DNA of 29,063 nt from a virus (taxonomy: Duplodnaviria; Caudoviricetes), in the IMG/VR virus record IMGVR_UViG_3300016472_000190, positions 1-29,063 of that record. One strand, given 5' to 3'. The notes beneath the pieces were generated by a model that saw nothing but the letters and a program-made list of their open reading frames with translations, was not told where the DNA came from and did not search any database. The position numbers and the translations under genes were made by a program. The first letter of the stretch is position 1. The number at the start of each line of letters is the position of its first letter. Shown one piece after another: positions 4,529-24,428 of this stretch.

Positions 4529-4671
4529 TGCCACTATTCCAAGGCGATAGCCAAACCATCATCAGCATGAACATCCGCAAGCTAATCAGCGAGGGATATT
4601 CACCTGAACAAGCGGCAGCGATAGCCTACGCCGAAGCTGAAAAGTATAAACAAAAGCGAGGTAAGCGATGA
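4528..4671 (+). CDS. Small phage protein, 47 aa (absent from ORF track)
   Basis: MPLFQGDSQTIISMNIRKLISEGYSPEQAAAIAYAEAEKYKQKRGKR; TAATG and ATGA overlaps at both ends. Confidence 0.8.
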   Translation: MPLFQGDSQTIISMNIRKLISEGYSPEQAAAIAYAEAEKYKQKRGKR

Positions 4672-5903
4672 ACGTGCAATTAATAAACATATCCGAGCTA
4701 ACGGTTAACCCGAACAATCCGCGCATCATTAAGGATGAAAAGTTCGATAAGCTGGTGCAATCGATTAAGGAGTTCCCCGAAATGCTAAAGTACCGCCCGA
4801 TAGTGGTGGATGAGAATAACGTGATTTTAGGCGGTAATATGCGTTTTAAGGCATGCAAAGCGGCAAAGCTGAAGCAAGTGCATGTCATGAAGGCAAACGA
4901 GCTCACAGAGGCTCAAAAGCGCGAATTTATAATTAAGGACAATGTAAGCGGCGGCGAATGGGATTGGGCGTTGCTTCAAACCGAATGGGACACCGAGCAG
5001 CTCGATGCTTGGGGTGTGGATGTGCCCGACTTCGAACGCGAGCAGGAACTCGAAGCAGTTGAGGACGATTACGAGATGCCCGATGAAATACAAACCGACA
5101 TCGTGCTGGGCGACCTATTCGAGATAGGCGATCATCGTTTGCTTTGTGGGGATAGTACGAATGCGGATGATGTGGCAAGGTTGATGGATCGAGGTAAAGC
5201 TATTTTAATGGTTACAGATCCGCCTTATGGGGTTAATTATGATGCGACTTGGAGAGCTGATGCTTTAGGAGATAAATTGATAGGAAAACCAAGAGAAGGT
5301 TTAGTGTCAAATGATGATCGTGCTGATTGGACTGAGGTTTGGGCATTATTTGAAGGCGATATTGCTTATGTGTGGCACGCTTCAAAATTTGCTGATGTTG
5401 TAATGAAAAGTTTGAGAGATTCTGGATTCGAAATAAAACAGCAAATAATTTGGAATAAATCTGTGATGGTTTTAGGAAGGGCAGATTATCATTTTAAACA
5501 CGAACCATGCTGGTATGCAGTAAGAAAAGGCAAGAACCACAACTGGCAAGGAAATAGAAAATTAACAACCGTTTGGGATGCAGCTCCGCCTACACATATT
5601 ATGAGTGGAAGCAAAGAAGAAAAAACAAGCCACCCCACACAAAAAGCATCGATTTGTATGTCTATTCCTATACAAAACAAGTCAAAAATAGGGGATGGAG
5701 TATATGATCCATTTCTTGGTTCAGGAACCACAATGGTAGCCGCCCACCAACTTAAACGCAAAAGCTACGGCATGGAACTTGACCCGAAGTATTGCCAAGT
5801 GATTATTGACCGCATGATAAAGCTCGACCCTACGCTTACAATCAAGCGCAATGGGCAGCCGTATAAAACAGACGAAATACAGACGTATGGCATTTCCGCA
5901 TGA
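4668..5903 (+). CDS. ParB-like N-terminal domain fused to beta-class N6A/N4C DNA methyltransferase
   Basis: NPNNPR...RPIVVD...GGNMR ParB motif; TDPPY catalytic motif precedes DPFLGSGTT SAM motif; HPTQK. Confidence 0.9.
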   Translation: MNVQLINISELTVNPNNPRIIKDEKFDKLVQSIKEFPEMLKYRPIVVDENNVILGGNMRFKACKAAKLKQVHVMKANELTEAQKREFIIKDNVSGGEWDWALLQTEWDTEQLDAWGVDVPDFEREQELEAVEDDYEMPDEIQTDIVLGDLFEIGDHRLLCGDSTNADDVARLMDRGKAILMVTDPPYGVNYDATWRADALGDKLIGKPREGLVSNDDRADWTEVWALFEGDIAYVWHASKFADVVMKSLRDSGFEIKQQIIWNKSVMVLGRADYHFKHEPCWYAVRKGKNHNWQGNRKLTTVWDAAPPTHIMSGSKEEKTSHPTQKASICMSIPIQNKSKIGDGVYDPFLGSGTTMVAAHQLKRKSYGMELDPKYCQVIIDRMIKLDPTLTIKRNGQPYKTDEIQTYGISA

Positions 5904-16076: not shown

Positions 16077-16996
16077 TGGATATTCAACCAACAAATCAAA
16101 GCGGCAAGCCTACCTCAGCAGGGGTGGTGCTTGTTGCTTTTGGTAAGCCGCAATACTATTGGGCTGCTTACAACCTTGCCTATTCAATTAAGCGATTCAA
16201 TAAGGATTTGCAGATTGCGCTAATCAGCGACAGCAAGGATAGGGCATTGTACTATTGCCATGATCTGACAAACCAAATCGATGTATATGTCGAACTGCCC
16301 GAGCAGCACATCTACACGAATAAGAAATTAGACCCGGCCAAGGCGAAGGTCTTGCTCTACGATTACTTGCCGTTCCATTACAACCTGTACCTCGATGTCG
16401 ATGCTGTATGCCTCAAGGACTTGCAGCCGCTAATCGACCAGCTAATCGAGAACGATGCTCAATACGCAACCCGCGTAGTTGGTGAGCACACCATCGACAA
16501 AGGCCGCGACTTCAGGCAGATGCAATGGGCTTGGGCTGACCAGCTATGGCAGCATTTCGGATTGAGCAAAGCCGATAAGATTTACGCTATCAATAGCAGC
16601 ATTCAGTTCATTCAGAAGTGCGCAAATGCTGAAGCGATTTACCGCACAGCTGCTGACCTATACCTCAACAATCCGATGCCCATAAGTAAGTTACGCATGA
16701 AGTGGGGAGGCGGGCAACCCGATGAGCTTTACTTCAATGTTTCGTTTGGTAAGAATAAATTCAAGCCCTACGAGATTGATGCAGTTTGTTTTCAGATGAG
16801 CCGCGAGTTCAGCTATGCGCAAATTGAAGAACGCTTCTACCTGATGAGCTACTATGGTGGCAAAGGATTCACACCGAGCTTTTACATCGAATGGCTCGAC
16901 CGAAAACTGAAAGCATGGATGCAACAGGACGGCATCCAGCACAAATACTTCATTCACAGAATAACAGACCACAAGCATGCAGACCCAAAGCGATAA
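16076..16996 (+). CDS. GT-A fold glycosyltransferase (GT8-like)
   Basis: AYSIKRFN...AKAKVLLYDYLPF...LYLDVDAV DxD motif, NSS and GQPDE segments. Confidence 0.75.
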   Translation: MDIQPTNQSGKPTSAGVVLVAFGKPQYYWAAYNLAYSIKRFNKDLQIALISDSKDRALYYCHDLTNQIDVYVELPEQHIYTNKKLDPAKAKVLLYDYLPFHYNLYLDVDAVCLKDLQPLIDQLIENDAQYATRVVGEHTIDKGRDFRQMQWAWADQLWQHFGLSKADKIYAINSSIQFIQKCANAEAIYRTAADLYLNNPMPISKLRMKWGGGQPDELYFNVSFGKNKFKPYEIDAVCFQMSREFSYAQIEERFYLMSYYGGKGFTPSFYIEWLDRKLKAWMQQDGIQHKYFIHRITDHKHADPKR

Positions 16997-17540
16997 GCCA
17001 AAGAAAGGCAGACCTAAAAAGATTGTAACTACCGAAACATTCAAAGAGGTAGCACGCCATGAGTGGAACAGCGAGCCCGATGTGTGCGAGTTTATTGGAG
17101 CGTTAATTAAAATGCACCAAGTAAAGACAGCACTTGAGATTGGAGTATTCGAGGGTGAGACATCGATTAAAATGGTTGAAGCATTACCAGTTGGCGGTTA
17201 TTTTGCTGGTATTGATATTAAGGATTATCGCAAGCATAAGCTTGAGGGCAATGGCGTTGCTGTTGACTTCAAGCTCGGCGAATCGATAGCATTGCTCAAA
17301 GGCTTTCCGGCAAATCACTTTGACTTTATCTTTGTGGATGGAGACCATAGCTGGGATAATATATTGCCCGAATTCAAAGAGGTTGAGCGGGTGCTGGCCG
17401 ATGATGGCATACTTGCATACCATGACACCATACACATTGCTGATATAGCAAGGCTGATGGAATACGCAGCGCATTATAAGTATAACGTAGTTACGCTCAA
17501 CACTTCTGAGGGGCGTGGCTTATCAATTCTGAAACGATGA
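16977..17540 (+). CDS. Class I SAM-dependent methyltransferase (Methyltransf_24-like)
   Basis: LEIGVFEGETS, FDFIFVDGDHS, GILAYHD motifs. Confidence 0.85.
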   Translation: MQTQSDKPKKGRPKKIVTTETFKEVARHEWNSEPDVCEFIGALIKMHQVKTALEIGVFEGETSIKMVEALPVGGYFAGIDIKDYRKHKLEGNGVAVDFKLGESIALLKGFPANHFDFIFVDGDHSWDNILPEFKEVERVLADDGILAYHDTIHIADIARLMEYAAHYKYNVVTLNTSEGRGLSILKR

Positions 17541-21396: not shown

Positions 21397-21554
21397 CAGT
21401 TAAGCAAGCCTATAAGATATTGAAGCATCATGCCGAATGGCGGCAGGGCAATACTTCAGAAATGGTCACGCCAACAGACCTGACAAAAGCACTTGAGATA
21501 GTGCTTACGTATCTTGAGAACAAACTAATGAGGGAATACAATGCCGCAATATGA
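21393..21554 (+). CDS. Hypothetical protein, 53 aa (absent from ORF track)
   Basis: MTVKQAYKILKHHAEWRQGNTSEMVTPTDLTKALEIVLTYLENKLMREYNAAI; ATGA overlap with the scaffold stop. Confidence 0.7.
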   Translation: MTVKQAYKILKHHAEWRQGNTSEMVTPTDLTKALEIVLTYLENKLMREYNAAI

Positions 21555-21813
21555 AGGCTACAATGTCACGGCATCCGAACGCGCTGGTAAGAAATACAAG
21601 GCGATAGACGATGAGGGCAATGAGATTCACTTTGGTGCTGAAGGCTATCGGATTAAGCCCGGCACGGATGCAGGCAATTCTTACTGCGCTCGTAGTGCTG
21701 GCATCCCTTCACCGAAAGGCTCGGCGAATTGGTGGGCTCGGCAGCTTTGGAGCTGCGAGGGGCGAAGGTCGGTAAGTGATAAACCTTTTTTTGGCAGAAT
21801 CGATTTGCCGTAG
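21541..21813 (+). CDS. Small viral protein (DUF5754-like)
   Basis: KKY...IHFGAEGY...SYCAR...SANWWARQLW pattern. Confidence 0.65.
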   Translation: MPQYEGYNVTASERAGKKYKAIDDEGNEIHFGAEGYRIKPGTDAGNSYCARSAGIPSPKGSANWWARQLWSCEGRRSVSDKPFFGRIDLP

Positions 21814-21870: not shown

Positions 21871-21896
21871 AGCTTGCAGCAATGCAGGCTTTTTTT
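21871..21896 (+). terminator. Intrinsic terminator
   Basis: AGCTTGCA-GCAA-TGCAGGCT stem-loop followed by a T tract. Confidence 0.75.
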
Positions 21897-21924
21897 GTGC
21901 CACATAAAAATATTTTTGAAAAAG

Positions 21925-21955
21925 TTTGCAGTTTCAAAATAAGGATGTATATTTG
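21925..21955 (+). promoter_or_regulatory. Full Bacteroidetes promoter (-33/-7)
   Basis: TTTG (21925-21928), 19-nt spacer, TATATTTG (21948-21955). Confidence 0.8.
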
Positions 21956-21978
21956 TGTCAGATTTAAAAACAAACACA

Positions 21979-22224
21979 ATGGCACATAGAATTAACGAAA
22001 GAAATATTGGCAATAGCACATTGGAAGCTACACCAAAAAAACGCAGTCAAAAACTAACTGCTGATGAATTAGAAACTATTGCAATGATAGTTTCTAAGGT
22101 TTATGATGCAATGGAAGAAGATGAAATCACAGGCACACATACAGATGGTGGTAGAATTACATTATCACTAACTGGTGAACAAATGTTTGATTTATTTGAA
22201 GCAAAAAGAAAATTAAATGGATAA
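21979..22224 (+). CDS. Hypothetical accessory (moron-like) protein; start moved to ATG 21979
   Basis: AT-rich, own promoter, A-rich initiation region. Confidence 0.7.
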   Translation: MAHRINERNIGNSTLEATPKKRSQKLTADELETIAMIVSKVYDAMEEDEITGTHTDGGRITLSLTGEQMFDLFEAKRKLNG

Positions 22225-22258
22225 ACTAATCAAAACTTTCGGAGTGGTCGGTAAAATA

Positions 22259-22401
22259 GCAGCTAACGTTAAGGTGCTTTGTGCTGTGTGGGATTTAATG
22301 CACTACACTTTCAACCTTGCACTAAAGCTGATAAAAGGCAAAAACGCTGAATTTACCACGTCCGCCCACATAGCACAAAACACGTGTTATAGGCAGTAGG
22401 G
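22259..22401. repeat. attC-like imperfect palindrome
   Basis: GCAGCTAAC (22259-22267) ... 19-bp arms 22274-22292/22365-22383 (17/19 complementary) ... GTTATAGGC (22386-22394). Confidence 0.65.
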
Positions 22402-23234
22402 ATTTTTAGCACAAATGTTTAATCGAAGCACTAAATAAAAAAAAGAAAAAATGCGAAGCGAGGGAATAAAAAATATTGATTGTTTGGAACTACTTAAACA
22501 AGTAACAGACGAAACTATTGACTTAACGATTACATCACCACCTTATAATTTAGGGGTGAAGCACCATACAGGTAATAACGTATTTGAAGCGTATGACGAA
22601 TACATTGACGATATGCCCGAAGATGAATACCAACAGCAACAAATAAAGGTGCTGAATGAGATTTATAGGGCAACAAAACAAGGCGGAAGCATAATGTATA
22701 ACCACAAAAACCGAATTAAGAACGGAAAGCAAATAACGCCATATGAGTGGCTTTTAAAAACTGAATGGACTTTAAAGCAGGAGGTAGTTTGGTTTAATGG
22801 CTCACAAAACTTTGATAAGTGCAGATTTTATCCAATGACTGAAAGGATTTACTGGCTATCAAAAGGCACGAATACTAATTTTACAAATGCTATTAACCAA
22901 CACGATTTGATAAAAGACACAGCCGAAGGAACAGACAAAGAACATAAAAGGGCTTTCCCTGTAAAATTGGCTCAAAGATTTATTATTTGTTTTCCTGATG
23001 CCGAATTGATATTTGACCCTTATATTGGAAGCGGAACAACTGCAATAGCGGCTATAAGGGAAAACAGAAAGTATTTAGGTGCTGAACTATCAAAGAAGTA
23101 TTTTGAATTAGCAAACAAACGAATAGAATATGAAACAGCACAAACCAAATTGTTTTAAAAGTGCGGTGGGGCATTTTTTATTTTTTTCTTCCACAAATGT
23201 TGAAACGAAGAACGTCTGCCCTATTGCCTATAAC
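22268..23234. mobile_element. Integron-cassette-like module carrying a DNA methyltransferase
   Basis: Hairpin followed by 16-bp IRs GTTATAGGCAGTAGGG (22386-22401) / CCCTATTGCCTATAAC (23219-23234) enclosing one AT-rich gene; TAAC at both junctions. Confidence 0.65.
22451..23158 (+). CDS. Beta-class N4C/N6A DNA methyltransferase (orphan)
   Basis: DCLELL, ITSPPYN catalytic motif, HKRAFP, DPYIGSGTT SAM motif. Confidence 0.9.
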   Translation: MRSEGIKNIDCLELLKQVTDETIDLTITSPPYNLGVKHHTGNNVFEAYDEYIDDMPEDEYQQQQIKVLNEIYRATKQGGSIMYNHKNRIKNGKQITPYEWLLKTEWTLKQEVVWFNGSQNFDKCRFYPMTERIYWLSKGTNTNFTNAINQHDLIKDTAEGTDKEHKRAFPVKLAQRFIICFPDAELIFDPYIGSGTTAIAAIRENRKYLGAELSKKYFELANKRIEYETAQTKLF

Positions 23235-23251
23235 TTTCTTATACCCGCTAA

Positions 23252-23281
23252 TTTGTAGCATATTATTTTTTATTATCTTTG
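23252..23281 (+). promoter_or_regulatory. Promoter for the major capsid gene
   Basis: TTTG (23252-23255), 18-nt spacer, TATCTTTG (23274-23281). Confidence 0.75.
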
Positions 23282-23290
23282 CAGCACCTA

Positions 23291-23375
23291 TGATGTAGTG
23301 CGCCGCAACTTATCGCGGCAAAGTAGGCGCAACTTCCAGCCTTTTTAATTGGAAGGTCTTACAAAAACTACATCA
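23291..23375 (+). promoter_or_regulatory. Structured 5' leader of the capsid mRNA
   Basis: TGATGTAGT (23291-23299) pairs with ACTACATCA (23367-23375); inner stems GCGCC/GGCGC and CTTCCA/TGGAAG. Confidence 0.55.
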
Positions 23376-23378
23376 ATC

Positions 23379-24428
23379 ATGTCTATATCTCGTATTCTTT
23401 CAGAATGCCCGAATGTGCAGATGAGCCTTTCGGAGTTATTCATCGAAGTAGGGCAACGCGAGCAGCTTCCATTTTTGGAGTTTCTCTTATCGCCTGAAAA
23501 CACTAAACTAATCCGCACCGAGGTTGCACCCGGTGGTGGTAAATTAAAAACCGTTCAAGCTCGTTGGATTCAGCGTTTGCCTGAGACCGAAGTTGAAACT
23601 GAAGGTGACATCCTTACTTGTACTTCAGAGAACACTTACGGCGATTCAACAACCACGTACACGGTTGACACAACAGATACGTACATCGCATCTCAATTAA
23701 TTAACGCTGCTGACATTGCTCGCCATTGTCAAGAGAACAGCCGTTACGTGCTTGAGTCGGTAATGCGTTTGATGGATGTGCTCGACCGTAAGGTTGCTTC
23801 TGCTGCCGCTGTTCAGGCTGTTGCTGACATCGGCAAGTGGGGCACTGATGTTGAAGGCTTCTACACCGTAACTGGTGACTGCTTGGAGATTGCAACAATG
23901 AACGGCGCAACCGAGCCTAATCCATTCGCAATCGCTGACATCCAGCAAGCAACTCGCATGGCTAACTATCCTGGCGCACCTGTTGCGTTTGGCGGTGCTG
24001 CAATGCAGCGTTATGCTAACGCGATGGCTGCTGGCTGTTGCTCGCAGTATGGCTTGGACTTGTTGGCAATCACACAGCAGAACGGCTTCGGCTTCGCTTA
24101 CGATGCTCGTTTAGCCGCTGCGCAAGGAGACCAGACCTCAGCGTTGGTAACAACTGCCGGAGCAATCCAGTGGTTATCATTCAATTTGGCTGATTGGAAT
24201 CAGGGCATCACGCCTGTTGCTGGTAGCAATTACTCAAAGACCTTGGTGTTCACACCGGCTGGAGTACCTTGCGACCTTACAATGAAGGATGACTGCGGTA
24301 ACTTGTCAATCGTGTTAACCACAACTGGTAAGATTGTTACTCTTCCAACTGACATTTACGAGGCTGGCGATAAGTATGCTGGCGTTAACTACGTTAACTG
24401 CGTGAGCATCGTAAACCCGGCCCCGTAA
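23379..24428 (+). CDS. Major capsid protein (start moved to ATG 23379)
   Basis: About 350 aa, own promoter and terminator, after scaffold and before neck genes. Confidence 0.75.
   Translation: MSISRILSECPNVQMSLSELFIEVGQREQLPFLEFLLSPENTKLIRTEVAPGGGKLKTVQARWIQRLPETEVETEGDILTCTSENTYGDSTTTYTVDTTDTYIASQLINAADIARHCQENSRYVLESVMRLMDVLDRKVASAAAVQAVADIGKWGTDVEGFYTVTGDCLEIATMNGATEPNPFAIADIQQATRMANYPGAPVAFGGAAMQRYANAMAAGCCSQYGLDLLAITQQNGFGFAYDARLAAAQGDQTSALVTTAGAIQWLSFNLADWNQGITPVAGSNYSKTLVFTPAGVPCDLTMKDDCGNLSIVLTTTGKIVTLPTDIYEAGDKYAGVNYVNCVSIVNPAP

Follow-up and report, generated by a model that had tools for sequence, protein, structure and literature searches.

Our analysis of a 29,063-nucleotide stretch of DNA from a tailed virus (IMG/VR record IMGVR_UViG_3300016472_000190, positions 1 to 29,063, hereafter the window) indicates that positions 22268 to 23234 are probably one cassette of an integron-like phage array with reversed genes, whose cassettes move at TAAC junctions, likely by way of a host tyrosine recombinase that is related to the integron integrase IntI and lacks its specific insertion. 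The system works like an integron, but without IntI, without extrahelical bases, and without the classical gene direction. The window phage carries helicase, terminase, and portal genes, and the sequencing runs that cover it best are freshwater metagenomes, two of them being possible sources of the window DNA.

An earlier note on this DNA had given coordinates for a 9-mer (22259-22267), two inverted repeats, and a methylase gene, with the hairpin upstream of its gene, and all of these were confirmed. Specifically, the repeats consist of 19-nt arms at 22274-22292 and 22365-22383 (89% match) and of a pair at 22386-22401 and 23219-23234 that is complementary at 15/16 positions, and the open reading frame at 22451-23158 encodes 235 amino acids matching Pfam N6_N4_Mtase (E = 1.3e-30). 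The GC content of the cassette stretch is 35-38%, against mostly 43-55% in the surrounding structural genes. A detector of the hairpin layout reported a single site in the window and none in 20 Markov controls of 29 kb; the cassette observation is exact and beyond chance. The whole 148-nt site folded no better than shuffled sequences (z of -0.6 on both strands, not significant), because most of it is AT-rich loop. A search of the window against Rfam gave no match, and the window held one hairpin. GenBank phages contain no close copy of the window cassette, and at this locus the coverage of RNA run X15 is confined to 23294-23350. The features of the locus are as follows.

21872 to 21896, plus strand: short stem-loop with a T-run, likely a terminator and the left boundary of the module; read by eye, retained in relatives, and not flagged by the terminator scan
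21897 to 23265, plus strand: accessory module of promoter-like motif, small open reading frame, relic gene tail, one cassette, and terminal site; missing in most close relatives
21925 to 21955, plus strand: Bacteroidota-type promoter-like motif (match to TTTG-N17-23-TAnnTTTG) that likely drives the module
21979 to 22224, plus strand: open reading frame of 81 amino acids with no Pfam or NCBIfam match; a related frame heads the array of relative L004
22233 to 22267, plus strand: 3' relic of a gene of about 53 amino acids; in several unrelated arrays, this gene has its end at the first junction
22264 to 22389, plus strand: attC-like hairpin site, with TAAC, 5 unpaired nt, an ungapped stem with 1x1 mismatches, an AT-rich loop, 1 unpaired nt, and GTTA
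22268 to 23234, plus strand: cassette unit of 967 bp, hairpin and then gene body, as delimited by junctions against relatives, the body-pair test, and an exact move in cultured phages
22386 to 23234, plus strand: cassette body with the 15/16 terminal inverted repeat; 91-94% identity in six other arrays, each with a different hairpin ahead
22403 to 22431, plus strand: direct repeat, copy 1, 79% identical to 23185-23213; resembles the loop of other hairpins
22451 to 23158, plus strand: N6/N4 DNA methyltransferase, intact and orphan (PF01555), its catalytic SPPY motif preceding the SAM-binding motif
23185 to 23213, plus strand: direct repeat, copy 2; resembles the loop and right arm of other hairpins
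23231 to 23265, plus strand: terminal hairpin-less site, attI-like, the likely insertion point; common to all array-bearing relatives, with a branch of the assembly graph of run X2 at 23234
23252 to 23281, plus strand: motif resembling a promoter, for the downstream gene; the tail of the terminal site contains the upstream half of the motif
23349 to 24428, plus strand: likely the gene of the major capsid protein, with residue 11 as the probable start, from its position and its nearest named Atlas clusters, which are capsid families (0.95-0.96)

The cassette had been placed between scaffold and capsid genes; the capsid end of this placement is likely by position and Atlas neighbors, while neither name has Pfam or PHROG support and the presumed scaffold gene is separated from the cassette by two further open reading frames (21541-21813 and 21979-22224). 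The motif TTTG-N17-23-TAnnTTTG, the Bacteroidota promoter consensus, matches twice in the window against 0.88 times expected by chance, a weak signal on its own. The 53-amino-acid gene is intact in L004, and similar tails precede hairpins in L256, L264, L560, L591, and L659; L221 has such a tail, but ahead of another sequence. Its Atlas neighbors are unnamed viral proteins, and a ribbon-helix-helix label for it found no support in these neighbors or in family searches. The left flank of the cassette, 22233-22267, is the tail of this small gene, which also precedes other arrays. Elsewhere in the window, a ParB-fused DNA methyltransferase adjoining the terminase genes (4668-5903) and an O-methyltransferase-like gene (16977-17540) have no cassette ends. 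Matching cassette ends are also missing from 19 of 21 viral relatives of the cassette's methylase protein.

The window cassette is the one-cassette state of a variable array, and not the lone module it had been taken for. Among 80 viral loci found through the downstream (capsid) gene, five (L002, L004, L006, L023, and L052) carry the module with other content, as does L202, from a motif scan. Their arrays comprise four cassettes in L002, two in L004, at least three in L006, one in L023, two in L052, and one, with a different methylase, in L202, and all six end at the same hairpin-less site as 23231-23265. Relatives thus carry other cargo at the right-hand TAAC junction, an outcome that the earlier note had allowed for. 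Further, 15 of the 80 loci join 21896 directly to 23266 through the T-run, as does a contig of run X11 from another study, so the missing piece is the 1.37-kb module with T-run ends and not the 967-bp cassette. On a capsid tree of 26 rows, the 7 array-bearing rows are scattered among 19 without an array. The spot before the capsid gene is an insertion hotspot.

Run X2 contains a contig of depth 14.7 that stops at 23234 and has two continuations, one being the terminal site (depth 10.6) and the other a new hairpin (3.8). This is compatible with some members of the population having one more cassette; the overlap is 30 nt, and the hairpin possibly belongs to another phage. X2 is possibly the source of the window DNA itself, a point that we counted, along with the short overlap, against the preferred explanation. 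The predicted native empty site, 22267 joined to 23235, occurred in 0/7 terminal-motif viral matches and in none of the 80 capsid relatives, and neither this joint nor the predicted circle junction, 23234 joined to 22268, was present in the contigs of 8 runs, contigs being prone to drop rare variants. An early pattern scan for the layout was discarded as mostly noise (11 of 119 loci with detector matches, about 4 of them real).

These data bear on a reading in which illegitimate recombination at T-runs brought in the module as an inert passenger, with a cassette that has become immobile in the window phage. Outer breakpoints in T-runs unrelated to the cores, a truncated relic as the left flank, a patchy distribution on the capsid tree (7/26 rows), and neither an empty nor a circular form in relatives or in the 8 runs are what such a passenger might leave; against it stand seven modules with one terminal site and different end cassettes, an assembly graph that branches exactly at 23234, and a hairpin and cores that are intact. 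We consider this reading quite unlikely.

Separate observations concern the same spot in other phages. More distant relatives carry unrelated promoter-gene-terminator inserts, free of hairpin sites, before the capsid gene (L017:2270-3180, L026:4940-5950, and L056:4880-5980), and apparently noncoding inserts of 400-600 bp are also found there (L043:5280-6000, L056:5450-5980, and L075:1550-2200), those of L056 and L075 being alike. In an unrelated phage, nearly the same terminal site runs on into a short palindrome (L205:3585-3625).

Returning to the cassette as part of a mobile array, comparisons of similar bodies, which are partly nonindependent pairs and include two chromosomal self-matches, identify hairpin plus gene as the short-term unit of movement, with a slower exchange of hairpins at the other core. 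Where bodies at least 97% alike had different upstream neighbors, the upstream hairpin was kept in 12/12 pairs; the downstream hairpin was kept in 0/11 pairs (bodies at least 88% alike). For bodies 88-97% alike, the upstream hairpin differed in 29/37 pairs, 21 of them from the cluster of the window methylase; counted per cluster, one hairpin was kept in 15/22 and not kept in 7. The window methylase body occurs in seven contexts with seven different hairpins, and 293 hairpin pairs at least 93% alike precede unrelated bodies with different cores. Wastewater contigs contain hairpins 92-96% identical to that at 22264-22389, with the same right core. On such sequence comparisons, the hairpin-plus-gene unit is unstable in the long run, and a hairpin permanently tied to its gene was rejected over long times by both the body pairs and the shared hairpins. 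In the available text of Nivina 2016 (PMC5027507), removal of extrahelical bases favors top-strand recombination; by analogy, top-strand recombination without such bases would give hairpin swaps here.

Cultured Flavobacterium phages of the lillamy type carry 10-13 family sites in 9 kb, and a move is recorded among them. Between lillamy9-1 and 9-3, a 439-bp hairpin-plus-gene block has shifted from mid-array to the terminal site, with 0 mismatches in the block and in the 3,600 bp that it jumped over and with a crossover confined to 6 bp containing TAAC. Isolate 9-7 has the moved order too, and other isolates among the nine compared differ by whole units. Excision and reinsertion at one attI-type terminal site, as in integrons, are thereby seen in these phages, and at the window locus different last cassettes are found at one site. 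Together with the junctions of relatives, this exact move upholds the proposal of a mobile cassette bounded by two TAAC junctions. PF00589 was found in 0/5 complete genomes of these cultured phages, so the enzyme acts in trans, as the earlier suggestion of movement without a phage recombinase had it. In its available text, Nilsson 2020 (PMC7077304) lists 15 methylases in these Flavobacterium phages and links one methylase to plating efficiency, which methylase content tracks in these phages; the word "integron" is absent from that text.

The hairpin belongs to a wider family of sites, common in the phages and chromosomes of Bacteroidota. Its end pattern occurs in an estimated 210 or so viral and 1,300 or so genome stretches, and the genomes among the matches listed are nearly all Bacteroidota or Ignavibacteria. 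Viral arrays have up to 25 sites, in a chain in which each cassette's ends are complementary. The grammar of 695 hairpins, a set picked by a detector that favors such offsets, is TAAC, 5 unpaired bases starting with G, an ungapped stem with 1x1 mismatches, an unpaired T, and GTTA. In a set chosen by the downstream 21-mer only, 49/86 upstream stretches had at least 11/15 pairs, 43 of the 49 at the same offset (4), against 6/1,500 control sites. Across 35 distinct arm pairs, the paired counts include 32/35, 33/35, 35/35, and 29/35, versus shuffled means of 15.9, 16.5, 17.7, and 10.4; with relatedness among arm pairs uncontrolled, the site appears to be kept as a hairpin through compensatory changes. 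In terminal sites, TAAC and T are followed 5 nt on by a second box, which contains TA. They are diverse, and that of the window is unlike in sequence to those beside phage recombinases; terminal sites may be derived from hairpin left arms. Many chromosomal cassettes are solitary.

As in integrons, an AAC triplet with complementary cores is present at both cassette ends. The cores do deviate from RYYYAAC/GTTRRRY, as had been noticed, the family having TAAC/GTTA with free inner positions (GTTATAG at the window site), and the arms pair without gaps at offset 4, with no extrahelical bulged bases near the L box. The family is also distinct from insertion sequences and MITEs: its flanks are a hairpin and a terminal site, its arrays are chained, and the moved block has no target-site duplication. 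Gene direction sets phages apart from chromosomes. In viral cassettes (n = 512), 464 genes lie behind their own hairpin, 22 lie opposite, and 26 cassettes have no clear open reading frame; the chromosomal counts (n = 109) are 7 behind the hairpin, 86 in the opposite, classical direction, and 16 without a clear frame. In integrons, a gene precedes its own attC and points the way that transcription from attI runs; the phage arrays are built otherwise. Insertion of classical cassettes on the wrong strand was considered and rejected: phages and chromosomes do not differ in how the hairpin is oriented to the terminal site, and the gene alone is inverted. One phage (L271) has two arrays on opposite strands, one of which ends at a recombinase gene.

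The candidate enzyme is a tyrosine recombinase whose role in cassette movement is suggested by linkage. That the window holds no recombinase proved correct: its contig, which is 83% complete and could encode one in the missing part, has no PF00589 match. Nor was one found in the array-bearing L002, L006, L004, L023, and L052 (33-86% complete), and two complete relatives without arrays had none either. PF00589 was present in 12/50 array contigs and absent from 38/50, and 15/153 viral array loci had a recombinase of 240-294 amino acids in their flanks. At 14 of 16 loci examined (15 viral and 1 metagenome), the array end is followed after 43-67 bp, in gene direction, by the start of this recombinase. 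Chromosomal arrays have a longer form that points into the array in 11/15 cases (within 3 kb), and a hairpin lies at most 1.5 kb downstream in 13/29 chromosomal-form loci. In a genus sample centered on Flavobacterium, 39/61 genomes encoded a protein related to the chromosomal form (E <= 1e-60); the 22/61 with no match to it were counted against the host-enzyme explanation. The chromosomal recombinases in L472-L496 are extended at the N terminus by about 70-310 residues in comparison with the phage forms.

The array-linked recombinases keep the catalytic motifs, and most have a Phage_int_SAM_4 domain. The distance between two catalytic motifs is 56-63 amino acids in 31 array-linked proteins, versus 103 in 3 IntI, and about 41 residues present in IntI are missing. 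Their match to TIGR02249 is split and below the cut-off, and the IntI-specific insertion (I2) is lacking. They score 137-202 bits against XerC/XerD cut-offs of 330-335, and a quick tree places them with IntI in a clade separate from host XerC/D (SH-aLRT, 99). The phage recombinase has no near relatives among GenBank phages, where the best matches reach 32-38%. In the available text of Escudero 2016 (PMC4792948), extrahelical bases are accommodated by the I2 domain; the joint absence of both here is consistent with this.

It is unlikely that another enzyme drives the movement at TAAC junctions, be it XerC/D of the host or a phage protein for annealing or recombination that exploits the short cores the sites have in common. 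Such an enzyme would suit a recombinase link that is positional only, the 38/50 array contigs without PF00589, and the XerA/XerD-like best profile and structure-sequence matches of the phage recombinase. However, one recombinase family strictly adjoins the array ends in both phages and chromosomes, exchange at microhomology needs no conserved asymmetric hairpin with compensatory changes, and the move in the cultured phages was directed to the terminal site.

That the locus is an ordinary integrase-less cassette array (CALIN) moved by a genuine IntI seems very unlikely. AAC/GTT cores are present, true IntI occurs in 3/50 array-bearing genomes, and, in the available supplement of Qi 2023 (PMC9892861), HattCI called a family site of Polaribacter phage P12002L an attC. 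Yet 47/50 array-bearing genomes have no IntI over the cut-off, the hairpins have no bulged extrahelical bases and a spacer of 5 versus 1, and the gene direction is wrong for Pc at attI. Further, P12002L_attC1, which is the true family hairpin before the methylase, is the one site on which IntI1 failed in the available text of that study. The paper reports phage CALINs, that of P12002L included, and notes methylase cargo. P12002L resembles the window in having a family hairpin (30055-30009), a methylase gene, and then a terminal site, whereas Qi 2023 takes hairpin and terminal site as two divergent attC sites, attC2 being the terminal site backwards; in its available text, no Flavobacterium phage is listed, and inverted genes and a non-IntI enzyme are undescribed. 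P12002L has three more family hairpins near other methylase genes, beyond the tested pair (L746:38935-32224).

Set beside integrons, as the available texts of PMC4889954, PMC5027507, and PMC4792948 describe them, the family shares promoter-poor cassette arrays, AAC/GTT cores, hairpins between genes, a single end without a hairpin where new cassettes enter, and an adjacent tyrosine recombinase with a Phage_int_SAM_4 domain. It differs in a recombinase without the IntI-specific insertion, in hairpins that have a 5/1 spacer asymmetry and are free of bulged extrahelical bases, in phage genes and recombinase inverted relative to the sites, and in hairpins reassorted among bodies. The integron-like subgroup of tyrosine recombinases (Smyshlyaev 2021, PMC8138268) comprises IntI and relatives, with an insertion that is "not fully conserved"; its available text assigns no cassette arrays to insertion-less members, and our array-linked proteins may be of this subgroup. 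Treponema integrons with inverted integrases (per the available text of Cury 2016, PMC4889954) are similar in that the chromosomal Bacteroidota recombinase mostly points into the array and runs the same way as the cassette genes, but they have true IntI and classical attC, and the phage layout is the mirror image. The attG secondary sites (bioRxiv 10.1101/2022.09.11.507474, available text) are loose double-stranded targets, and family terminal sites are diverse too; unlike attG, family terminal sites share more than GWT, and that of the window is reused in seven phages. Within the literature searched, with subscription journals and preprint supplements outside its scope, phage CALINs (PMC9892861) were found and inverted cassettes with an insertion-less recombinase were not.

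Under the reading that we prefer, a reversed-gene array moved by a host enzyme, the coding strand would fold into the substrate and be cut in the AAC triplet, as in integrons. The excised circle would restore the long outer stem and reinsert at the terminal site, and rarer cutting at the other core would swap hairpins between genes. Both the enzyme named and the chemistry on single strands are putative parts of this scheme. The whole module may have entered the phage group as a block, with spread and loss through recombination between relatives, and the methylase would presumably protect phage DNA from a host restriction enzyme.

The relation between hairpins and genes goes further than their order. 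Among long hairpins, an ATG is open through the right core in 297/364 viral versus 37/98 chromosomal cases, and the TAA of the end core serves as the stop codon of 135 viral cassette genes; the start codon of the window methylase is in the body, outside the hairpin. Loop-like 5' flanks were found in 65/426 viral cassettes versus 10/426 mid-gene controls. In 82 metagenome bodies, enriched for the window cassette family, 38 and 29 had hairpin-like flanks, versus 1 mid-gene control. In the window itself, 22403-22431 and 23185-23230, which flank the methylase, resemble loop and right-arm sequence of other hairpins. L518-L627 present a single cassette scaffold, with the 5' flank of the window cassette and many cargo genes, many of which start with the same few residues as the window methylase.

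A broader and more speculative reading, which we hold to be possible though doubtful, is that an undescribed sister system of integrons, run by IntI relatives without I2, is common to Bacteroidota and their phages. The phages would maintain an inverted cassette pool of their own and rely on the enzyme of the host; hairpins, which often supply the start of the gene, and bodies would reassort as separate parts through cutting at either core; and bodies such as that of the window, with two loop-like flanks, would have been born by genes entering hairpin loops. If this is true, gene entry into a hairpin loop is a visible route of cassette birth. According to the available text of IntegronFinder 2.0, only one complete integron is reported in Bacteroidetes proper; our results suggest that standard integron finders miss most Bacteroidota arrays.

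Integron function is thought to need both the IntI-specific insertion and extrahelical bases. The arrays described here shuffle in integron style with neither, and this would make the step from a simple tyrosine recombinase to an integron testable, and, as cultured phage-host pairs exist, the mechanism is open to direct testing. The finding accounts for the variable methylase region of the cultured Flavobacterium phages, and it would give lytic phages of a major aquatic phylum a means of fast change in their methylase sets against host restriction.
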